Below are positions 3,066-44,349 of a DNA stretch of 64,000 nucleotides, piece after piece (position 1 is the stretch's first letter; the number at the start of each line of letters is the position of its first letter). The translations under genes and the position numbers were made by a program. Below the pieces are notes generated by a model. That model worked only from the letters and a program-made list of their open reading frames with translations, did no database searches and was not told where the DNA came from. The stretch spans positions 1 through 64,000 of the IMG/VR virus record IMGVR_UViG_3300029305_006221; one strand, written 5' to 3'. Source of the stretch: a virus.

Positions 3066-4610
3066 TTAAAACGCTGATAAATCAACGCTCTTCTTTACAT
3101 TTATTTTAAAATCCTCAATATCGACAAGTCCATAATCATATTTAGTGACAAAAACAGGATCTATTCTACAAATTCCTCTATTTGCTTTACACCAAACTAA
3201 AACACCTTTCCAGCGCGAACTTCTATTTTTATAAATTGACATCTTTATATCTGGCATTTCAAAGCCACCTCTTTTACAAATATCTTGCAGTGCTTCTTTA
3301 TCTTTCTCTGTGATTTCCAACATTAGCGCCCCATAGTCAATTTTATCGGCAATTGCCTTGGCACCTCTTAAAAGGTTTTGATCATAAACTTCAGCGTCTC
3401 GATAATCTCCGTTCAACTGGGTTGCACTCATAATAAAAATGCCATATTCGTTACATAGATCCTTGAGTTTAACCGAAAGCATAAAGAGAACATTATCTTC
3501 TCTTAATTTAACTCCTCCACTTCTGCGAGTTATTTCCTCTAAAATACGGAGTGAGGTATGGATATAATCCTGAAAGACATAGCATACTTCATGCTCTCTA
3601 ATGCCCTTTTTAATAACATTCTCTATGTCTTGAAGAGAAAAATCTGGTAGAGATTCGAAGTATATTTTACCATTTTTCAAGAGCTGAGCTGCATGCATAA
3701 CTCTTTCCCATTCGCCTTCATAGTAATCACCTGTTGCAATTCTATCTGAATCGACCGCCGCTAAAAAAGCAATCATCATTTGTTGCACTTCATCAAGACT
3801 TTGCTCTGTTGCAATATAAAGAGTAGGCTGTGGCATTCCAGTGTTTATCCAAGTATTCGTTTCTAAATCGTACATAGATCCACATCCAATATAGCAGGCG
3901 TCTGCAATCATTGAACGGGTTTTACCAACGCCAGTCGCCGCAGAACGAAGATAGAACTTTTTAAGTCTCGCACCTCTTGTAATCGTGTTAATATATTTAC
4001 CATAAAGTGGGTATCCTAATTCTGGCTTTTGTTTAAGCTGTTCTAGCATTAGTTCAACTCCATCTCCCGCCTGAACAATATCTGCTTCACAGTTGTCAAC
4101 ATAAACCGATTTAACATCATCTATCTTTTTATCAATTAAATCTGCGATTTCTACAAGAGGCGTATTATCTAACCAGTCCTCTTGCGCTTGTTTCTTCTTT
4201 GCATCGAAAATATTATCCATATCATAGAGCCACGATAAATCCATTCCACAGCGCTCATTATACATACGCAAGAGAGTCATCTTTTTGACTCTATCATAGT
4301 AATATTGAAATGCGCTTAACTGTGTAGCCTCTTTAAGTTGCTCAAGATACTCTGCACCTTTATTTGCTTTATATATCGCTTGGCGCTTAGGGCGCTGTGC
4401 AAGATAGTCTTCTATTGCATTGAGTGTTATCTCTTTTGCGCCGAGCGCGTGAAGATTATATATAGTTCCAAAAAGAGTTACGTGAAAGTCCTCACAAAAA
4501 TCCTCTTCGTGGAAGTGATAATTTTCGTTATCTAAAAGTGAAGGTTGGATATAGATAGCGCCGATTACTTGCATTATTGCGGCAGTATCTACATATTTAC
4601 TTTTGCTCAT
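3066..4610 (-). CDS. DnaB-family replicative DNA helicase
   Basis: N-terminal DnaB-like domain. Walker A SAATGVGKTRS. RecA-like C-terminal fold motifs. 514 aa. Confidence 0.8.
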   Translation of the reverse strand: MSKSKYVDTAAIMQVIGAIYIQPSLLDNENYHFHEEDFCEDFHVTLFGTIYNLHALGAKEITLNAIEDYLAQRPKRQAIYKANKGAEYLEQLKEATQLSAFQYYYDRVKKMTLLRMYNERCGMDLSWLYDMDNIFDAKKKQAQEDWLDNTPLVEIADLIDKKIDDVKSVYVDNCEADIVQAGDGVELMLEQLKQKPELGYPLYGKYINTITRGARLKKFYLRSAATGVGKTRSMIADACYIGCGSMYDLETNTWINTGMPQPTLYIATEQSLDEVQQMMIAFLAAVDSDRIATGDYYEGEWERVMHAAQLLKNGKIYFESLPDFSLQDIENVIKKGIREHEVCYVFQDYIHTSLRILEEITRRSGGVKLREDNVLFMLSVKLKDLCNEYGIFIMSATQLNGDYRDAEVYDQNLLRGAKAIADKIDYGALMLEITEKDKEALQDICKRGGFEMPDIKMSIYKNRSSRWKGVLVWCKANRGICRIDPVFVTKYDYGLVDIEDFKINVKKSVDLSAF

Positions 4611-5238: not shown

Positions 5239-7406
5239 TTATTGAGCTGTATTTATTAAATCTCTAATTGCTGTTACAATCAAATCCAAAGCTTCTATCT
5301 GCTCACGAGAACATTGACTTACGCGCATTCCTTTGCCTAAATAGCTTTCGATTATCTGAGTAATACGAGGCTGCCAATAGGTTTTAAATGTTTCTTCATC
5401 ACTTTGAACTGAAAGATCTTGAATCATTGAATTAAACTGCATCATAAGTTCGTCGAAATCAAGTTCTTTAGATGCGGTATAAAGGTTTGCATCGTTTGTA
5501 GTAAAATGTTCTGAACCTTCTTCTGCAGCCTGCCTATCAATTGCATCACAGATAGCATTTACCAGATTTTGATAAGTGAAATCAATAACATCTGGGGTAT
5601 ATTTGAAACGGCTACCTGCTACATATCGAGGAGTTCCACGCATAAACAATTTAGTAGCGGTTCCTCCTTCAGGCAGATCTACTGTACGAGAATACCCAAT
5701 AATATCTGCCATCCTATTAACGATGTTACGAGGTTTGTTATCGAGAGTAGGGACGATCTGATTGTACTCGTTGCCATTCTGATCCTTAAAAGTCTTATCA
5801 ACTGAATGTGAGATAAGAACTAAACCGTAATTCATTTGAAGAATTGAGCGTAGGCAATCGTCAAATTCTTTAGCCGCCATCTTATAGCCCTTCCCGTAAG
5901 GGATGTCTCCTATTGCATCTACTCCAAAACCGCCATCGGCACGAGGTGCATTTGCGCAAATATATTTTTCACAATAGTCATAAGCTATATCAGCTGTATC
6001 AATAATAATAGTAGAAAAACGCTTTTGGACCTTAGGATCTTTTAATTGGCGAAGAACTTTTCGAAATTCACCCCAGCTATTAACTGGTTGTGCCATAGCT
6101 CCGGGGATTGCATTCCAACCTTTTTCAAAGCCAAGCAATAAGTGATTAGGAAATTTGGTGGCGATTGTAGTTTTACCCTTTTGTTTTTATCTATAGATTT
6201 TTTATTCTATACTCTGGAAATTTCTTTCATTTCTTAATACCGCCTTATATTAAGTCATCGAATGGTTTATTCCATTCCAGTTTAGCATAACTTCTCTTCT
6301 TAAGTCTATCAGAAGTCGTAGACTCGTGGTTTTATTATATTCTATTATTTTGTTCTTTCCACGCTAGATACTTTATATATTTTCTTTGTAAATAAAAACA
6401 TTTTTGTTGGTTCATAAGCTCGTAAAGAGTATTTAAAATCAGTTCAGCTTGTTGAGTTGAATACGTAATGGTATAATAATGTTGTTTCTTAGGCTCTTTA
6501 TAAACTTCACGAGGAATATGAAATACAGTATCAATTAACTGTGTAAAATCTTGAAGAATGTTAGGATCATAAGAACAAATTTCAATACGGCAATATTTAC
6601 CATCATTTTTAAAACATCCATCTCCATCAAAATAGCCTAAGAAAAAAGCTAATTGATATTGTTGTTCAAAAGCAGGGAGTCTCATTCCCTTGTAAGTTTT
6701 ATTGGGAACTATTGAGAATTGTGCTAATTTTTTCTTGTGATTTTCGCTACTCCAAGCCAAAGTTGATACTTGAAAACCTTGATTAGTTTCTTTATCGACG
6801 ATATTTCTTTCAATATCCAGTTCTTTTTGAATTTTTTCCAAAATTTCTCTATCTACTGAACTTAGCCCTAATTTAATAGAATTTCTATCTGGAGTAATAC
6901 TACCATCAGCTGCTAAGAATCCTAGCAACCAAGCCTTTTGTAAAGAATCTATATTATCAAAATAAGAGTGGTTTACTTTTTTCCCTCGTTCTTGATTAGT
7001 AATTCTATTTTGCTCTGCATGGGTTCTAGTTTTAATACCTTGCGCCTATAACATATTTTTTATTTTCTCTGGATAGGTTCCATATTTATTCGCAAGAAAA
7101 GTAAGCGATTTTCCTTCGCTATATAATTGTATCATTTCAGTGATGTCCATATACGGTACATGCTCCTTTCAAAATAATAGGTTCAAAAACTATGCGTTGC
7201 ACGTGGGGTGGCTATTACACCACCCCTTCCGTTCGGGTTATCTCTATAAGACCTTCCCGTTTTTTCTACGATGTTTGCCCTTTAATTTCTTAAAGGGAGA
7301 GCAGTAAAAGTTTACTCTTCGGTTCCCCATAAAAGAATACTGAATATCCTCTAAGGGTGCGACTAACCTAGTGGGGGGCTAGTTCAAGTAAATTAATATC
7401 TGCCAT
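5239..7406 (-). CDS. AAA_24/Sak4-like P-loop ATPase, split by a group I intron. Exon 1 is 7406..7314 (contains one in-frame TAG). Exon 2 is 6177..5239.
   Basis: Exon 1 reads MADINLLELAPH*VSRTLRGYSVFFYGEPKS and exon 2 reads GKTTIATKF.... Joining them restores a perfect Walker A (GEPKSGKTT). IIIDTADIAY and LVLISHS motifs lie downstream. Confidence 0.6.
6178..7313 (-). mobile_element. group I intron (about 1136 nt) inside the Walker-A codons of the AAA_24 ATPase gene; carries a LAGLIDADG homing endonuclease ORF
   Basis: Exon 1 ends in U (..AAGAGU) and the intron ends in G before GGUAAAACU. The exons join in frame. The region is structured and GC-richer than its surroundings. Confidence 0.55.
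6335..7150 (-). CDS. LAGLIDADG homing endonuclease with N-terminal HTH; one in-frame TAG at 7046-7048
   Basis: Two LAGLIDADG motifs (LGFLAADGSI and FLGYFDGDGCF). An N-terminal HTH (MDITEMIQLYSEGKSLTFLANKYG) continues in frame through a TAG. Confidence 0.65.
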
Positions 7407-7422
7407 TTAGATCGCCCTCCTA

Positions 7423-8388
7423 TCAGAAATTAAAGCCACCAGCTTTTGCTTGAGGAGCGGCGGGCGCTGCTACAGGATTATTCTTCTGTGCCTTATACTC
7501 TTCGCTTCTCTTCTTTTCCTCAGCAAGCTTAACCTGTCTATCCTGCATAGCCTTAGTAAGCTCTTCGCCCGTAAGGATGCCTTCTTCACCAAAATCATAA
7601 GGATTCTGTGACGCACGAGTTACAAGCCACTCCTTAGTCTTACGCTCAAAGGTTCTGACAGAGTCACCACCAAATGCAGTCTCTTCCTTAACCTCAGTTT
7701 TTACAGTGTTGCAATTAATAACACCTTCAACCCAAGTGTAAACAGGTTCACTGCCAGAGGCGCCAAGTCCTTCAAAATAGTTCATACCATTAGGATTCTT
7801 AACTGTGAAAGTAAGAGGAAGAAGCTCTTTGCGGAAATTAAATACCGCACCACGAATAGCAACATGCTCGTCAACATTCTTCTCTTCATCTGCTTCTACA
7901 TGAGTTACATTTGTGATAACCATATCACAACGGAAATAAGTTCTTTCTGCCTCGTTTTCAGGAAGAGTATTTACTATTGTTGCAAAACCACCTTCATGCA
8001 TTACCTGAGATACGAGTTTATCTTCGCCATTCTCATTGATATAGAAATCATTAAGTGCAAAAGAAGGCTCAAGCTTAACCATAGGCGCAGCATCCTTGCC
8101 ATCCTTTACCCAGGTCTTGCCACCATCGATAAGTGCCTTAAGAGCAGTAAAGGTATTATTGGTTCCGCCAGCTTTAGTAGTAGGACTTACAAAAGTATAG
8201 TGAACAGGAATTACATTAAGACCTGCCTCATCTACTGCTACCTGGATGGTTCCTGCAATAAACTCCTTACCGAAGTTCTCAGACTTCTCATTCTTTACAG
8301 TCTTAATCTCAAGCATATTTCTTCCATTTGCTTCTCCAAAACTGTAAACTCTTCCTTGAATTGTAATTGAATTCTTTGTGTACTTCAT
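7423..8388 (-). CDS. hypothetical protein (possible ssDNA-binding partner of the adjacent ATPase)
   Basis: 321-aa ORF. Promoter at 8452-8480. Sits immediately upstream of the Sak4-like ATPase. No diagnostic motif found. Confidence 0.4.
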   Translation of the reverse strand: MKYTKNSITIQGRVYSFGEANGRNMLEIKTVKNEKSENFGKEFIAGTIQVAVDEAGLNVIPVHYTFVSPTTKAGGTNNTFTALKALIDGGKTWVKDGKDAAPMVKLEPSFALNDFYINENGEDKLVSQVMHEGGFATIVNTLPENEAERTYFRCDMVITNVTHVEADEEKNVDEHVAIRGAVFNFRKELLPLTFTVKNPNGMNYFEGLGASGSEPVYTWVEGVINCNTVKTEVKEETAFGGDSVRTFERKTKEWLVTRASQNPYDFGEEGILTGEELTKAMQDRQVKLAEEKKRSEEYKAQKNNPVAAPAAPQAKAGGFNF

Positions 8389-21519: not shown

Positions 21520-21595
21520 TGGCGGCGGAGGTGAGATTCGAACTCACGCATATGCACTTTTAGAGAGTGCCGCCTTCCCGCTTGGCTACTCCGCA
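21520..21595 (-). tRNA. amber suppressor tRNA, anticodon CUA, tRNA-Gln-like D-arm
   Basis: Cloverleaf folds. Anticodon loop is CU-CUA-AA. D-arm AGCCAAGCGGGAAGGC matches the tRNA-Gln D-arm. T-arm is GUGAG/UUCGAAU/CUCAC. CCA is encoded. Own promoter (21625-21653) and terminator (21489-21510). Confidence 0.8.
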
Positions 21596-25889: not shown

Positions 25890-26105
25890 TTATTCTTCTG
25901 TTACTTCAACTTCTTGTGCTTCTTCTACATCGGGAGCAGTTGCTTCAGCTTTAACCAGCCCCTCTAAGCATTTGAAACTAAAATTTTTATGTTTAAATGC
26001 GGCGAACTTAGGCCTATTAACAATACGAACCACTACGCCTTCGCGCACATGGGTCTTGCCTATCGGATCGGGACCATCATAAAACTGCTCTGCCTTAAAA
26101 CCCAT
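25890..26105 (-). CDS. RNA ligase C-terminal segment (motifs IV/V) in the -1 frame relative to 26060..27295
   Basis: EGVVVRIVN (motif IV) and FKHKNFSFK (motif V) with an acidic tail. Overlaps the upstream ORF by 46 nt. Confidence 0.45.
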   Translation of the reverse strand: MGFKAEQFYDGPDPIGKTHVREGVVVRIVNRPKFAAFKHKNFSFKCLEGLVKAEATAPDVEEAQEVEVTEE

Positions 26106-27295
26106 TCACCCGCAGAAATAGTAGGATCGTCTGCTGACGCGCAGTGGTCAGGAATAATACCTTTCCACATTACAGGAACGGTTTTTACTCCCATCTGTTC
26201 ACAGCGATAACGCATGAAGTCAGGAGTATACTCAACTACATCACCATCCTCGTTAGTCATAGTCATACGGTAGATATAGATATCTGACTGAGGGACTTCC
26301 ACAGAAATAGAAAAAACTCCATTATCATCATTGCCATACATTGTCTTTAAACCATCAGGAGCGCATCCATAAGAAAAACGAGTAGTTTCACCATACTGTT
26401 TAATAAAATCTTTATCATTTAGCTTTTTATTATTTGCATCTCCCATAATAGGCTTTCCATCGGTTGTAAAACCAACTACCTCGTAGTAAATAGTCTCGCC
26501 CTTCCAAAGTTTTCCTTCAAAAGTCTTTGAATGTTTTTCTCTAAACTCATTAGAGCCATAAAACCCACCTTCATAATCTTCAAGAACTACGCGGCGGGTG
26601 CCAGAAACACCGCCCCAGTCATATATAGGAGTACCTTCTTTTCGAGTGATCTTATCCCAAAGGCTACGCTTGTATCCTTTTAGAGTAGGCAGATAACCAG
26701 TTCTCTGACTAGTGCCATGTAGCTTAAGCGTGATCTCAATCTCGTCACCAGGCTTAAAAGCGCCAAGGTTATAAGCTAACTGCTCAGTGTCAGCATGCTC
26801 CTTGAACAAAGGCGCGGTAGAGACCTTCTTCTTACGAGTTCTGTTTCCATCTGATACATAACCGCGACGAGTATTAGAACGAGGAATATACTTGCAACAA
26901 ATCTCGTGTCCATTAACAAGACCTTCGATTATATCTCCCTCTTTAAGATGCGCGGCGGCTGCCTCATCTTCGAAGCAATAGTCGAGCGCAGATAAAGGAA
27001 GGAAAATACCATCTGATTTCTCTCCGCGCAAACGAATAGCGGTTATATTGCGTTTGTCAGGATCCATGTAGCCACCTATATTCACTCCATTTTCGTCTTT
27101 CTTACGAAGTAGATTATTATGTTTAGCAAATTCTACTGATACCTGACCATCGGTAGGTAGATAGATACCAAGCTGTCCCTCTTTATAATCAAGAGAGACG
27201 CATATAGTATTTCCAAAACAGTCTGCAAGAAGCAGTCTATCTGCATTGGGATGAGGGCGCACATTTTTAAGTGTAGTTATATAAGCCTTATACAT
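26060..27295 (-). CDS. RNA ligase (Rnl2-like), N-terminal part: tRNA-binding (Trbp111/Myf-like) domain plus adenylyltransferase motif I. The ORF ends at a TAG and continues in the -1 frame.
   Basis: N-terminal VRPHPNADRLLLADCFGNTICVS. Motif I KLHGTS (KxHG). 411 aa. Confidence 0.55.
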   Translation of the reverse strand: MYKAYITTLKNVRPHPNADRLLLADCFGNTICVSLDYKEGQLGIYLPTDGQVSVEFAKHNNLLRKKDENGVNIGGYMDPDKRNITAIRLRGEKSDGIFLPLSALDYCFEDEAAAAHLKEGDIIEGLVNGHEICCKYIPRSNTRRGYVSDGNRTRKKKVSTAPLFKEHADTEQLAYNLGAFKPGDEIEITLKLHGTSQRTGYLPTLKGYKRSLWDKITRKEGTPIYDWGGVSGTRRVVLEDYEGGFYGSNEFREKHSKTFEGKLWKGETIYYEVVGFTTDGKPIMGDANNKKLNDKDFIKQYGETTRFSYGCAPDGLKTMYGNDDNGVFSISVEVPQSDIYIYRMTMTNEDGDVVEYTPDFMRYRCEQMGVKTVPVMWKGIIPDHCASADDPTISAGEWVLRQSSFMMVPIR

Positions 27296-39940: not shown

Positions 39941-40461
39941 ATATAAGTGGCAGTAAGTTGCCAGCCGCGTATTGCTTTTCCTTATGGTTCCATTTGCTCT
40001 ACCAAGAGTTGGATTACTCCAACGAAAATAGAAACTTTAAGTGGATCGGCGTTGCCTCTATTCCACTTTTCCGCGTTGTCGACTTACGCTTAACCGTTTT
40101 ACTTTTTATCTGCGTCCAGACCTGCTTATTGCTTACAGGTGTTTCTATATAGATGCACGCATCTTTGGGCAATCCAAATTATGGCGGCGTGCCAGCCTCT
40201 GGCGGAGAGCTGAGGTGTCGATCCCCATACGGGTACTAGCCGTACCAACCGTTTTCAAGACGGTGTTGCGAGCCGTCGCAATTAACCCTCCATATAAAGC
40301 AGAGGTTATCGTACTCTGCGCAGTCCCATATGGCGCCTTGTAAAGACTGCAACGATTCGACTATTCGCTATCGACAAACGCTACTTCTGATTGTGGATGG
40401 TCCACCAATACGCTTCCAACTTAGGGAGTTTCACCTTTTATGTCGCCGCATTAACGACAGC

Positions 40462-40553
40462 TGGCAGCGAGGGTGAGACTTGAACTCACACACCGATTAC
40501 TCGATTACTGGTAGGTTAGCAACCTACTGCCTTACCAATTAGGCTTACCCCAC
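40462..40553 (-). tRNA. class-II tRNA-like gene (Ser GCU-like anticodon arm), atypical. The acceptor pairing is unresolved and may indicate a pseudogene.
   Basis: Anticodon arm GUAGG-UUGCUAA-CCUAC. The variable arm contains a tandem AGUAAUCG repeat. T-arm GUGAG/UUCAAGU/CUCAC. 3' ..GCCA. Confidence 0.35.
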
Positions 40554-40873
40554 TATAAGTGATAAGCTGCGCCAACATACGCCCTTATCTTGTCACTGTG
40601 TTTTACAACCCGTCAGTGAGCCAGTTGTTGGGTTTTTCCCTCTGCGTAATGTTGGGCGCTTTTGGGGAGTTGTCCTTCTCCTGTTAAGGCATTCGCTCTA
40701 AGCTGCTCTTACTTAGTGGGGCCGCTTTATTCCCATACCTTATGTATTGTGTGTTCCACTTGCGTTTTCTCTTCTTAATCGGTTTACACACAACCTTCCA
40801 CTTGAAGCGCCACTAATTTATATACCGAATCTGGCTTTCATCGGTGAGTATGATATCGATCCCTTTAAGGGAC

Positions 40874-40961
40874 TGGTGGGGGAGATGAGATTCGAACTCA
40901 CAGCGTTTCTAATGTACGCGATTTTAAGTCGCGGGCGTCTCGCCAATTCCGCCACTCCCCC
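40874..40961 (-). tRNA. tRNA-Leu (UAA), class II
   Basis: Acceptor GGGGGAG/CUCCCCC-A-CCA. Anticodon arm CGCGA-CUUAAAA-UCGCG. Long variable arm. Confidence 0.7.
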
Positions 40962-40990
40962 GTGTCGCCTCATAGTGAGGCTTTTGCGCC

Positions 40991-41335
40991 TTAACAGACG
41001 CGAACAAAATGATACATCATTGGATGATGAGTATCTGCAAAAGACATATCTCCAAAAGCATTTTCAAATTCTTTATCAATAGCATCTGTTTCATATTCAA
41101 ACCAACAGATAGCGTCTATTGAGTCAAGATCAATTTCTCGACCAAGAGTGACTCCAAAATAGTAATCACCATAGTTGCCATAGGCATTATCTGTGATAAA
41201 TGAGTACTTGTCAGTTCCATCGTACTTATCGCAGAACTCTTCTATGAACTTACCTGTTTCTTCCTCAAGGCGCTTAATTTCACTTTTAGATATTTTATAT
41301 CCATAAATTAAAACTGACTCATAATCAACACTCAT
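40991..41335 (-). CDS. hypothetical acidic protein inside the tRNA island
   Basis: Start MSVDYESV. Promoter at about 41365-41400. Confidence 0.4.
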   Translation of the reverse strand: MSVDYESVLIYGYKISKSEIKRLEEETGKFIEEFCDKYDGTDKYSFITDNAYGNYGDYYFGVTLGREIDLDSIDAICWFEYETDAIDKEFENAFGDMSFADTHHPMMYHFVRVC

Positions 41336-41431
41336 TTTTTCTTTTTTCCTCTCTTTCATCTTACATATATATTATATCATAAATTTTTGTAAAAATCAAA
41401 GAAGTTTCATAGTAATTGATTAAAATTTCAT

Positions 41432-41520
41432 TGGTGGGCGATGAGGGAATCAAACCCACTCGAGTCACAATGACGCTAGATTTACAGTCTAACCCGCCTA
41501 TCTTAACGGTTTAATCGCCC
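41432..41520 (-). tRNA. tRNA-Tyr (GUA), class II
   Basis: Acceptor GGGCGAU/AUCGCCC-A-CCA. Anticodon loop CU-GUA-AA. Variable arm stem GUCA/UGAC. Confidence 0.65.
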
Positions 41521-41587
41521 ATATAAAATAACTTTAGGTCAGTCAACCACACATCTATTTTAACCTCGACATTTGTTCTCTGAGGAC

Positions 41588-41677
41588 TGGAGCAAGATGC
41601 TGGAATCGAACCAGCATTAATGGAGTATATAACCCGTCCCTATAACAGGCGCGTATAACCTATTCCGCCAATCTTGC
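41588..41677 (-). tRNA. tRNA-Leu (UAG)-like, class II, A33 in anticodon loop
   Basis: Acceptor GCAAGAU/AUCUUGC-U-CCA. T-arm GCUGG/UUCGAUU/CCAGC. Anticodon arm CCUGU-UAUAGGG-ACGGG (one G-U pair). 17-nt variable region. Confidence 0.45.
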
Positions 41678-42001
41678 ATATAAAATGAGGCGCCAGTGCA
41701 TGCTACAGCCAAGCCGGCAGTTACCCATCGCCGCCTCTCTTGGATTTATGGGTGCGGATATCGGTACTGCCCCGATCACCCTGAGCTTATGAGGCTCTGG
41801 TGAGCACTATGCCCATCCGCGATATAAAGTGAGAGTTTACAGTACCCTCGGAACCTTATCCCAACTTCCCATTAAGTACAGCCAAGTTGGCACTGTACGC
41901 CTGATTTTTATTTATACTCCCACTCGGACAGGAGTGGCGCGACCTTAAGAGATTAACTCTTCCCCATCGGCGCTCTTATTAGTTGATGGGCGGCATTAAT
42001 A

Positions 42002-42076
42002 TGGTGAAGCTTGAAGGAATTGAACCTTCGCCTAAGCGCTGAGAACGCCTCGTTGTAACCACTTAACTAAAGCTCC
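42002..42076 (-). tRNA. tRNA-Glu (CUC)
   Basis: Anticodon loop UU-CUC-AG. Acceptor GGAGCUU/AAGCUUC-A-CCA. Confidence 0.6.
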
Positions 42077-42126
42077 ATATGAGGGACAGTAATTTCGATT
42101 ACGCGCTGTACCTCTGACCGCGTTTC

Positions 42127-42203
42127 TGGTGATGCCGACAGGATTCGAACCTGCGAATATAGGGATGAAAACCCTAGGAGTTAAACCACTTCTCAACGGC
42201 ACC
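42127..42203 (-). tRNA. tRNA-Glu (UUC)
   Basis: Anticodon arm UAGGG-UUUUCAU-CCCUA. Acceptor GGUGCCG/CGGCAUC-A-CCA. Confidence 0.65.
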
Positions 42204-42416
42204 GCATGCCTTGATGCATTTAACGCTCATCAAGTAGCGTGGTGTTTTCTCTCGGATTACTCCCTAACCGCCCTTTGATTATGCCACCTCGCAACTCACA
42301 AACGGGTAATTTGTTGCGCCATATCTTCATTAAATACCCTACACCGTCACTCCATCAACGGCGGGTTTATCTAAACGATTTTACTAATATAGGATTATCG
42401 TGAACCTATACATAAG

Positions 42417-42490
42417 AGGGACTTAACGGACTCGAACCGTTGCCACATAGCTTATCCATTCTACTGCTCTACCATCTGAGCTAAGGTCCC
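42417..42490 (-). tRNA. tRNA-like gene, atypical: the anticodon stem cannot be paired and there is no CCA. May be a pseudogene.
   Basis: Good acceptor, D-arm (GCUC/GAGC) and T-arm (AACGG/UUCGAGU/CCGUU), but the central UGGAUAA loop region lacks a stem. Confidence 0.3.
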
Positions 42491-42905
42491 ATATTCCAAG
42501 GGGTTCGTATCGCGGTTATCCCCACCGCGTGTGTACACAAGCATTTTCAGACTCCTAACGGTTGTCTACTGATGCTTACAGGTATTTCCCGCCTTTATTC
42601 ACCCACTTTTGCAATTCGCTTGCAGGTTGGAGAACAAAAGTAAATGCAGCTCCTATGCGGAGGGTTCTCTCTCTTTCACACCCACAACGTCAGCTCCGTC
42701 ACGAGGAAGCCACGCTCATTTTTTCATAGGAGTTGAGTATTCTCCCAATGTCACGCAGACCTCATGCAGTCCTTGCGACTATACCAAGCGTAGTTGTCTT
42801 TCAGACTTTCACGGGACTACGCAACTCCGTTCACTTTTTGCTTCTTTGCTTTTCTATTGTATATATATTATATCATATTTTTTTAATAAAATCAATAGAG
42901 AATGA

Positions 42906-43124
42906 TTAAACGATAATAAAATCGCTTATATTTCGATAAATATCATTCTCTGCTTCGCACCAGAGTTCATCAAACTCCATTGCATAAAGTGCGCCAAGCA
43001 ATGATTTTGCATTAACCTTAAGCCCCGCTCCATCGGTGATATGAACTGCGCCTTCCATCTTAGTTGTGATGTTAACAAACTCTTGAACATCACGCATTGT
43101 ATCAAGTCTTATTTTTGCTTTCAT
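42906..43124 (-). CDS. small HPr-like (phosphocarrier-fold) protein (tentative)
   Basis: VNAKSLLGALYAMEF resembles the HPr VNLKSIMGVMSLG segment. 72 aa from MKAKIRLD. Confidence 0.3.
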   Translation of the reverse strand: MKAKIRLDTMRDVQEFVNITTKMEGAVHITDGAGLKVNAKSLLGALYAMEFDELWCEAENDIYRNISDFIIV

Positions 43125-43247
43125 TTTTTTTTCTTTTCTTCCTCTCTCATTATTACATATATATATTATATCATATTTTTTTATAAAAATCAATAATTGC
43201 GCAAGAAATTACTTTTAAATGCCTTAAGATATGGATTAAAATGTTTT

Positions 43248-43322
43248 TGGCAGGGGACCTAGGATTCGAACCCAGACCAAGCGGGTTGGAGCCGCGTATG
43301 CTAGCCGTTACACCAATCCCCT
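43248..43322 (-). tRNA. tRNA-Trp (CCA)
   Basis: Anticodon loop CU-CCA-AC. Acceptor AGGGGAU/GUCCCCU-G-CCA. Confidence 0.65.
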
Positions 43323-43329
43323 ATATCTC

Positions 43330-43575
43330 TCATAAAACCTCCCACCAAAACTCAGAAATTTTACGATATCTTCCTTTGCTGCCTAAATCGCCTTTATAGC
43401 GACGGACAGCGCGATTACATTTTCGCTTAACAAAGCGAACTCGCTCTGGCATTTGATATCTGCGATAAATACCTTTTTCTTCATCATAGTAAACACCTTT
43501 ACCATACCAAGTTTTGGTTTGGGAATAACAGTGTTTATCTCGTCTTCTTTGGTCTCTACTTCTTTTCCAACCCAT
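43330..43575 (-). CDS. small highly basic protein
   Basis: 81 aa, Arg/Lys-rich, between tRNA genes. Confidence 0.3.
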   Translation of the reverse strand: MGWKRSRDQRRRDKHCYSQTKTWYGKGVYYDEEKGIYRRYQMPERVRFVKRKCNRAVRRYKGDLGSKGRYRKISEFWWEVL

Positions 43576-43654
43576 AAGCCTCTCCTTTCTGAGTGGGTAT
43601 TATTATATTAAAATTTCTTTTAATACTTTAATTACTTTTGAAAAAATTTTTACC

Positions 43655-43807
43655 CTAATCTTCCATAGAGCGACAGTCGTGCGCCTTTTCACGCTTGCGA
43701 TTATGTTTCTTCTTACTTTCAATTACTCTTGTATGCAGAGAGGGCGAGTTGCGCATTCTTTCTTTACGCATAGCTTGAGTCTCTTTTGCTTCAAGCGGCT
43801 TTTTATT
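43655..43807 (-). CDS. small highly basic protein
   Basis: Start MSNKKPLEAK. Arg/Lys-rich. Confidence 0.3.
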   Translation of the reverse strand, partial: NKKPLEAKETQAMRKERMRNSPSLHTRVIESKKKHNRKREKAHDCRSMED

Positions 43808-43906
43808 ACTCATTTCCTCTCTCCTTTTGTTTATTAACACAAACTCGACCACACGCGTCCCACCGTCCTGTTTCATACGCCTAAGCCTTGTCCGTCGGTT
43901 GTGTAT

Positions 43907-43981
43907 TGGCACGGGATAAAGGAATCGAACCCTTGTCTTGGCGTCCGTAGCGCCACGTTCTGTCCATTAAACTAATCCCGC
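43907..43981 (-). tRNA. tRNA-Arg (ACG)
   Basis: Anticodon arm UGGCG-CUACGGA-CGCCA. CCA encoded. Confidence 0.7.
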
Positions 43982-44108
43982 ATAAAAATGCAAAGGTATC
44001 TAAGGCGATTCTGATAGAGTTGTCCTTTGCTAGTGTTTTTATCTCTATGTTTAAACACTTCTTTCAGTCTTTATATAAACCCGAATAGAGATGAGGTTTA
44101 TATCGCAT

Positions 44109-44185
44109 TTGGTGCGCCACCAAGGGCTCGAACCTTGGGTCTGCTGATTAAGAATCAGCTGCTTTACCACCTAAGCTAGTGGCGC
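44109..44185 (-). tRNA. tRNA-Lys (CUU)
   Basis: Anticodon arm GCUGA-UUCUUAA-UCAGC. Acceptor GCGCCAC/GUGGCGC-A-CCA. Confidence 0.7.
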
Positions 44186-44274
44186 ATATTTACTTCCAAC
44201 CGCCGAACGGGTAGCACGGTCATCTGGTCTCCTTTTGCGGCGAGACGCTTACTACATTCCCCATGTTGTCCTTG

Positions 44275-44349
44275 TGGCACGGGATAAAGGATTCGAACCT
44301 TTGGCTTATCGCTTAGAAGGCGATTACTCTTCCGCTGAGTTAATCCCGT
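44275..44349 (-). tRNA. tRNA-Arg (UCU)
   Basis: Anticodon arm AUCGC-CUUCUAA-GCGAU. CCA encoded. Confidence 0.7.

Follow-up and report, generated by a model that had tools for sequence, protein, structure and literature searches.

Group I introns that carry homing endonuclease genes and sit at the catalytic-motif codons of phage replication genes are a classic arrangement. Comparators are the introns of T4 td, nrdB and sunY, of the SPO1 and SP82 DNA polymerase genes and of Twort orf142, together with those in the DNA polymerase, ribonucleotide reductase and terminase genes of the Bastillevirinae (PMC11878797). The occurrence of several introns or insertion sites in one gene, and the uncoupling of intron lineage from endonuclease type, are well documented (PMC3984707; PMC11878797), and phage introns mostly carry GIY-YIG, HNH, PD-(D/E)xK or EDxHD enzymes (PMC3984707). 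We have analyzed a 64,000-nucleotide (nt) stretch of viral DNA (IMG/VR virus record IMGVR_UViG_3300029305_006221, positions 1 to 64,000; hereafter the window), in which the gene for a Sak4-like (AAA_24) ATPase is split by a 1136-nt insert that separates the Ser and Gly codons of its Walker A motif (GEPKS|GKT). The insert is, with high probability, a mobile group I intron, putatively of the IA type, that encodes a LAGLIDADG endonuclease, and we infer its splicing, as well as cleavage and homing by its enzyme.

The window intron resembles the described phage introns in being of the self-splicing type, in occupying the catalytic-motif codons of a conserved nucleotide-metabolism/replication gene, in having its open reading frame (ORF) looped out of a peripheral helix, and in the extra IA-type P7.1 hairpin between P7 and P3'. 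As in those phages, several introns occupy several sites in the one gene across relatives. It differs from them in its Sak4-like/AAA_24 host gene, its LAGLIDADG enzyme, its non-consensus P7 and its escape from detection by Rfam. A literature search revealed no report of an intron in a Sak4-like/AAA_24 ATPase gene.

Results

The insert interrupts the Walker A codons of a Sak4-like gene

All genes in the 5239-7406 region of the window, and all features of the locus described below, are on the minus strand. Exon 1 (7314..7406; 31 codons, MADINLLELAPH[TAG]VSRTLRGYSVFFYGEPKS) starts with an ATG at 7406, ends TTC TTT TAT GGG GAA CCG AAG AGT (..FFYGEPKS) at 7314, and aligns with the N-termini of the intron-less homologs P0003-P0006 and P0011. 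Exon 2 (5239..6177), the remainder of the ATPase gene, starts inside the P-loop with GGT AAA ACT ACA (GKTTIATKF) and ends with TAA at 5239. Both exon ends are where a preliminary description of the locus had placed them, in coordinates and in sequence, and its figure of 1136 nt for the intervening DNA is also right. The insert between them (7313..6178) starts AAACUUUU and ends ..ACAAAAG. The 1136 nt are not divisible by 3 and include stops in the exon frame, with unspliced read-through from exon 1 meeting a stop within eight further codons. The exon 2 frame has no start codon ahead of the P-loop remnant. The earliest, a TTG, lies 13 codons inside, past GKT, and a separate exon 2 product would therefore be devoid of Walker A.

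When the exons are joined, a protein of 343 amino acids (aa) is obtained, and the junction, GEPKSGKTT, is a perfect GxxxxGKT (Walker A). Pfam AAA_24 matched the joined product in a single stretch that spans the junction (residues 20-222, profile 2-195 of 195, 131.5 bits, E 4.6e-38), and PHROG 124 ('Sak4-like ssDNA annealing protein') matched it at 1e-48; a full-length AAA_24 match that includes Walker A is a property of the spliced product only. A large protein collection contained hundreds of full-length relatives of ~343 aa with 72-86% identity. The intron-less homologs are continuous across the proposed junction (..YSVFFYGEPKSGKTTIATKF.., ..GEPKSGKTTIATKF.. and ..PHQVSRDLRGYSVFFYGEPKSGKTTIATKFPNHLLL..), with a residue-for-residue match to ..GEPKS|GKTT.., and the uninterrupted site is visible in the DNA of the intron-less loci L001-L008 and L022. 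Because the intron-less 343-aa homologs read straight through the junction, the N-terminal piece is the genuine beginning of this gene and not a small gene of its own. The in-frame fusion put forward in the preliminary description is thus borne out, both by these homologs and by the contiguous AAA_24 match.

Among the nearest relatives (93-100% identity), every gene call is truncated at the N-terminus (285-312 aa). The ones that were fetched (L017-L021) have an insert at the same spot, and in L022 (83% identical) the truncation is due to a TAG alone. Exon 2 is 91.6% identical to that of L017 in DNA and 97% in protein; judged by such sequence comparisons, the host gene is under purifying selection in the intron-bearing genomes.

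The insert folds as a group I intron

The intron (6178..7313) has its 5' splice site after U7314 and its omega-G at 6178. In its internal guide sequence (7298..7309), GCUCU (7302..7298) forms P1 with AGAGU (7318..7314), the last 5 nt of exon 1, leaving a U.G pair at the splice site; directly 5' of this guide, UUUUACU (7309..7303) forms a P10 of 7 base pairs (bp) with exon 2 GGUAAAA (6177..6171). P2 is a hairpin (7278..7297; CCCUUUAA-GAAA-UUAAAGGG). P3 pairs UCGUAG (7266..7271) with CUACGA (6321..6316), and P4 pairs CGGG (7259..7256) with CCCG (7237..7234). P5 (7252..7240) is flanked by J4/5 AA and J5/4 AA, P6 consists of 3 bp (ACG 7232..7230 with CGU 7203..7201), and P6a (GGGGUGG/CCACCCC) lies within 7201..7259. 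The R element GCAACGCAUA (GUGCAACGCAUAG; 7191..7200) is made up of J6/7 and the P7 5' strand, and P7 pairs GCAUA (7195..7191) with UAUGC (6289..6285).

P7.1 (GUUUU 7190..7186 with AAAAC 6333..6329) and P7.1a (CUAUUAUUUUG 7180..7170 with CAAAAUAAUAG 6352..6342) are followed, within 6285..6328, by a conserved joiner CACGAGU and the P3' strand. P8 (CUUCU/AGAAG) spans 6315..6296, and the S element AAGUUAUGCUAA combines J8/7 AGAAGU (6295..6290) with P7' UAUGC (6289..6285). The P9 domain, P9.1 and the tail occupy 6178..6280: P9 (CUGG/CCAG) encloses three hairpins, and the P9.1 hairpin (UAUAGA/UCUAUA), with a conserved loop AUAAAAAA, leads into the tail GAUAAAAACAAAAG that ends at omega-G 6178.

Relative to shuffled sequences, the ORF-deleted window intron has a folding z of -6.4, and its centroid structure recovers P2, P3, P4, P5, P6/P6a, P7.1a and the P9 hairpins. 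A first manual model, with P7 as AGUCUA/UAGACU or GAGUC/GACUU located 3' of the ORF, was rejected, as it left no room for P3' and P8 or made J8/7 too short. The P7 5' strand was placed ahead of the ORF after comparison with the R/S consensus and with relatives.

Michel and Westhof are said to have defined subgroup IA, in 1990, by extra P7.1/P7.1a (or P7.1/P7.2) helices between P7 and P3'. A covarying stack of P7.1 and P7.1a sits between P7 and P3' in the window intron, which by this definition would be a candidate IA (IA1-like) member.

Covariation and a family link support the fold

The fold was written from the window copy and then scored on a sequence-only MAFFT alignment (A1) of 15 distinct ORF-deleted copies from the same gene, the endonucleases of which are 50-97% identical. 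Controls were folds with the 3' partners slid by 1-3 columns. Standard pairs filled 91.3% of the cells of the proposed fold, but only 39-41% in the slid controls, and 59 of 96 pairs were changed on both sides compared with 9-26 after sliding. The covariation score was 0.361, against 0.06-0.09 for the slid folds and 0.14 ± 0.008 for shuffled ones (0 of 500 reached the observed value).

P3, P7, P7.1, P8, P9 and P9.1 were paired in every cell, with P6a (99%), P2 (98%) and P4 (92%) close behind. Changes on both sides affected seven of the eight P2 pairs, and pairs were compensatory in five of six positions of P3 (where UCGUAG/CUACGA switches to UCGCAG/CUGCGA and UUUCGG/CCGAAA), in four of five of P8 and in eight of 11 of P7.1a. 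P7.1 showed four pair types at one position, and P7 contributed one compensatory pair, an A-U to G-C swap in three copies (GCAUA/UAUGC to GCGUA/UACGC). All 15 copies have the U.G pair of the 5' splice site and end in G. The guide also tracks the exon: in L037, where the intron lies 8 nt upstream and the exon ends GGGU, the guide reads GCCCC in place of GCUCU. One inner hairpin of the P9 domain is missing as a unit in 7 of the 15 copies.

An ORF-less relative, L049 (the same as locus L064, from isolate Ignavigranum ruoffiae DSM 15695), matched the full Rfam Intron_gpI model (RF00028) with 70.8 bits (E 4e-16). In the Rfam alignment of L049, GCAACGCAUA is the P7 5' strand, gguuuugaaauaauaaacccacg an insertion before P3', and GAAGAUAUAUGCU J8/7 plus P7'; the assignments of R/P7, inserted hairpin, P3' and S/P7' made by Rfam for L049 are those made by the present fold for the window copy. 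The two introns share the R element GCAACGCAUAG, the hairpin GGUUUUGAA..AAACC followed by CCACGAG, the S element GA(A/U)AUAUGCU, the P9.1 loop GAUAAAAAG and the tail GAUAACAAAUUG. The window intron differs from L049/L064 in the 816-nt ORF within an extended P7.1a, a larger P9 domain and a different host gene. A covariance model built from A1 (R1) matched the window intron in two halves (148.5 and 84.7 bits) and the ORF-less relatives with 44-155 bits (L049: 44 bits, E 4e-10); it found nothing in the intron-less loci and nothing in an unrelated HNH intron. The group I call of the preliminary description therefore stands on a P1-P10 fold with a P3/P7 pseudoknot, seen by covariation in 15 copies, and on the family link to the Rfam-accepted L049.

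From this anatomy and established group I chemistry, the window intron is very likely self-splicing. The guide GCUCU would pair with the end of exon 1 and place U7314 in the U.G wobble, and an external guanosine bound in P7 would attack after U7314. The terminal G6178 would then take the same pocket, the guide segment UUUUACU would hold the start of exon 2 in P10, and ligation of the exons would restore the frame for the 343-aa ATPase. The predicted ligated-exon junction reads ..GAACCGAAGAGU-GGUAAAACUAC.. (ligated-exon k-mer GGGGAACCGAAGAGTGGTAAAACTACAATC), and the unspliced junctions read AAGAGTAAACTTTTAC and AACAAAAGGGTAAAAC.

The intron ORF encodes a two-motif LAGLIDADG protein

The loop of P7.1a holds the ORF (6335..7150; 816 nt, 271 aa), whose final codons (..Q N N R I) double as the P7.1a 3' strand. 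A Shine-Dalgarno sequence, AGGAG (7167..7163), is found 12 nt upstream of the start. Pfam LAGLIDADG_3 matched the ORF in two stretches (70.8 bits, cutoff 22.5; 1.2e-19), PHROG 4645 matched it at 8.9e-43, and the acidic residue is kept in both motifs, LLGFLAADG (6928..6902, aa 75-83) and FLGYFDGDG (6643..6617, aa 170-178). A PDB sequence search with the protein gave no relative. The preliminary description was right in assigning a LAGLIDADG ORF to the 1136-nt insert; the N-terminal helix-turn-helix (HTH) that it also proposed is plausible but not significant in the window copy, for the N-terminal 70 aa of which Pfam returned HTH_58 at E 0.14, below cutoff; some homologs have precomputed HTH_38 matches.

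The likely role of this single-chain, two-motif enzyme would be to cut intron-less alleles of the P-loop-coding DNA in mixed infections. Recombinational repair would then copy the intron into the cut allele (homing).

In-frame TAG codons are presumably read as Gln

Exon 1 contains an in-frame TAG (7368..7370), absent from the preliminary description, at the conserved Gln of PHQVSR. It aligns with Q in >20 homologs, and the codon is CAG in L017 and TAG in L021, L022 and L001. The endonuclease ORF has a TAG at codon 35 (7046..7048), where the L021 intron (95% identical) has CAA (Gln); no TAG was found in seven of eight distinct related endonuclease copies that were checked. The window has a tRNA with anticodon CUA (amber suppressor; 21520..21595, minus strand; Rfam tRNA, 53.2 bits). 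Both TAG codons are presumably read as Gln by way of the phage's own tRNA-CUA, in keeping with the earlier proposal of a recoded TAG in the endonuclease ORF. ORF lengths under alternative stop-codon sets gave no decisive sign of genome-wide TAG recoding in this AT-rich sequence.

A described parallel is found in the Agate phages, in which TGA is read as Trp and a group I intron in an early gene has an endonuclease ORF with in-frame reassigned stops; the authors propose that recoding delays endonuclease production (bioRxiv 10.1101/2021.08.26.457843). The window phage is like Agate in combining a reassigned stop codon, a group I intron and a recoded endonuclease ORF. It differs in that its TAG would specify Gln, the endonuclease ORF has a single TAG and the host exon has one too, whereas in Agate TGA specifies Trp and the endonuclease family is preferentially recoded.

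In-frame TAG codons are common at the start of the Sak4-like gene across the clade (L001, L006, L012-L014, L016, L021 and L022). Two of them, DI*PH*VS, occur in L001, L012-L014 and L016. The TAG of L006 falls inside Walker A itself (G*PKSGKT), at a residue that is Glu or Asp, not Gln, in other relatives. The window has 22 tRNA genes, most of them in one array (36151..44349, minus strand) that is separate from tRNA-CUA, and ARAGORN called one tRNA with a 4-base anticodon (GGAU) at 42416..42490.

Related copies point to mobility and to recurrent insertion

Relatives were reached through homologs of the intron ORF (40-97% identical) and through a 19-nt core motif, GCAACGCRTAGNTTTTGAA, in viral contigs (L035-L059). 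An arrangement of a YorF-like gene, a short exon 1, a LAGLIDADG ORF and an AAA_24 exon 2 recurs in diverged phages (L021, L028-L034). Between the window and L021, the intron is 94.8% identical (96-99% in the ribozyme parts), compared with 86.8% for exon 2, 82.7% for the upstream YorF-like gene and 64-87% per 100-nt window, mostly 68-80%, for the downstream genes. In this alignment, conservation of the intron clearly exceeds that of the flanking genes, and the discordance may be taken as an indirect sign of intron mobility.

Loci L017-L020 are closer to the window in the host genes (~92%), yet they have an unrelated, HNH-encoding intron 3 nt downstream, after GGU. This intron (L017:1798-2785; 987 nt) is a group I intron by a partial Rfam match (32 bits, E 4.6e-5) and canonical P/Q/R/S elements, and its HNH_3/NUMOD ORF comes immediately ahead of the S/P7' strand, at ~25 nt from the 3' end. 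It is like the window intron in its group I type and in occupying the same P-loop codons of the same gene, and unlike it in the +3 nt site, the enzyme and the sequence (50% identity in global alignment). Each of the two introns would destroy the presumptive target of the other. At the window's site, 14 of 14 copies have (A/G)AGAGU before the intron, which is the P1 requirement; intron-less alleles mostly have other Ser/Thr codons there (UCU, UCA, UCG, AGC or ACC).

The P-loop codons are a hot-spot of insertion. A member of the same family lies at -8 nt in L037:6455-7514 (minus strand), and others lie at -6 nt, by the P1 reading and with an exon ending in CCU, in L072:4600-6320 (minus strand) and L075:1-1460 (minus strand). 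At the Walker B codons (..IVIDTA|), L029 (3632-4760) and L030 have a paralogous copy of the window intron, equipped with a second LAGLIDADG ORF. Introns are also found after ..LLLA| in L028 (3613-3873) and L034 (4353-4590), of canonical type with a LAGLIDADG ORF, and after ..NIVNRMA| in L012-L014 (L012:3567-4540), where a group I intron passing Rfam (78.2 bits) carries a 211-aa LAGLIDADG ORF. A likely further family copy, of which the 5' part only was seen, follows ..GDIPYGK| near 4705-4888 of L072. Bacillota genomes and bins, namely those of Ignavigranum (L064:3821-4065), Clostridium sp. and Selenomonadaceae/Selenomonadales (L083, L066, L071), also harbor family members that lack an ORF or are otherwise equipped. 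The L083 intron has a different endonuclease-like ORF upstream of P4, and the L064 intron is located within AT-rich DNA, with no obvious coding exon upstream.

Searches with nhmmer and R1 across the window revealed no further intron copies; weak nhmmer matches near 26.6 kb and 25.9 kb fall in a coding region and were dismissed as chance, and a scan of viral contigs with the S-element pattern AAGAGAAGTTATGCTAA gave chance matches only. No similar intron was found by blastn in ~50,000 GenBank phage records, where only exon 2 was matched, by Sak4-like genes of Enterococcus phages with ~65% identity.

Other genes were noted in passing. The DnaB-like helicase of L031 (4967-5819), called at 700 aa, has a faint Hom_end_hint match that suggests an intein, and the window DnaB (4610..3066, 514 aa) looks uninterrupted. 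At 25890..27295 of the window (minus strand), ORFs of 411 aa (27295..26060) and 71 aa (26105..25890) overlap in different frames and look like a frameshifted gene; TAG read-through of the 411-aa frame, as an alternative, would give an implausible tail.

Alternative explanations

Several results weigh against a self-splicing, mobile group I intron. Rfam Intron_gpI gave no match in the window copy, either at the gathering score of 50 bits or at E<=10 (6000-7500), and most ORF-less relatives also fell short of E 0.1. The Rfam side of the group I claim thus holds for the ORF-less family member L049 and fails for the window copy itself. The window P7 (GCAUA/UAUGC) departs from the common GACUA/UAGUC; the copy stays under the Rfam threshold because the 816-nt ORF splits the core and the P7 of the family is non-consensus. 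Weak Rfam matches in the window (rli37, Bacteroid-trp and others) were rejected, as they reflect chance similarity to the P2 hairpin or A-rich coding DNA. P5 (63% of cells paired) and P6 (80%) are the weakest helices, with moderate support, the former in part through an alignment that is gappy there, and P10, of 7 bp in the window copy, is weak in several relatives (69% of cells paired). The endonuclease stop codon lies ~13 nt ahead of P3', so that a ribosome finishing there would unfold the core, a kind of conflict that other introns also face (PMC3984707). Failed suppression of the endonuclease TAG would leave 34 aa.

A free-standing homing endonuclease gene could split the ATPase gene in the absence of splicing, and the 31-codon and 299- to 312-codon pieces would then be separate products or the gene would be dead. 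Public gene calls (a 29-38-aa ORF, a LAGLIDADG ORF and a truncated AAA_24 ORF) and the lack of an Rfam intron match in the window would fit such a gene. We consider it highly improbable: the break falls inside GxxxxGKT with no exon 2 start before the P-loop remnant, and the exons are under purifying selection. In addition, no part of the locus is as conserved as the non-coding flanks of the endonuclease ORF (96-99%), and these covary helix by helix, with the guide tracking the exon. An element of some other kind (group II intron, intein or inserted transposon) could be suspected because an insert of ~1.1 kb bearing an endonuclease ORF interrupts a conserved motif, as is also typical of inteins. 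An intein is ruled out, since 1136 nt cannot be divided by 3 and exon 1 is followed by stops within 8 codons. There is no reverse transcriptase, no GUGYG...AY boundary pair and no group II Rfam match, and neither terminal repeats nor a target duplication were seen, the boundaries being the U and G of group I. The sequence excludes these elements, and the chance left to them is negligible.

A group I intron that is past self-splicing, either in need of a LAGLIDADG maturase or host factor or a decaying copy, is given a small chance. The short P6, the non-consensus P7, the missing Rfam match and the TAG in the endonuclease gene are in its favor, and LAGLIDADG maturases exist, one of them with a bacterial 23S intron (Hausner et al. 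2014, PMC3984707). However, all core helices are intact in the window copy, and its near-identity to the L021 intron implies a recent, functional copy. Furthermore, ORF-less family members persist in several genomes, so that the RNA is not generally dependent on the LAGLIDADG protein. A mobile, self-splicing group I intron accounts for these observations and remains by far the most probable explanation of the insert.

Discussion

New here are the host gene, a LAGLIDADG enzyme, which is uncommon in phage introns, and a lineage mostly missed by the Rfam model and unseen by blastn in cultured phages. Its signature is the R element GCAACGCRUAG, the hairpin GUUUUGAA..AAAAC and the joiner CCAMGAG. 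Somewhat speculatively, and at less than even confidence, we propose that (i) these copies form a distinct, mostly undetected IA-type lineage in phages and prophages that are apparently Bacillota-associated, an attribution made mostly by the names of binned assemblies; (ii) this lineage has entered the P-loop codons at positions -8, -6 and 0 (within 8 nt), the Walker B codons and a likely site in L072, with an HNH competitor at +3; and (iii) TAG may serve as a timing switch.

The known workings of group I and homing elements are unchanged by this finding, which would not surprise a specialist and is useful for annotation. In the public assemblies examined, the gene is called as three unrelated ORFs and the ATPase is seemingly without a P-loop. 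With model R1, related copies could be found in phage contigs as well as in several bacterial genomes and bins; most members escape Rfam.

Once the intron is recognized, the recombination ATPase is complete again in a clade of uncultivated ~135-kb phages. Turnover of introns and endonucleases can be seen at this locus in compact natural form, with three insertion points of one family and an unrelated HNH intron all inside 11 nt of Walker A-coding DNA. The locus also contributes a case with recoded TAG to the proposal that homing endonuclease expression can be timed by stop-codon reassignment: in recoded hosts, reassignment of TAG may gate when the endonuclease is made.

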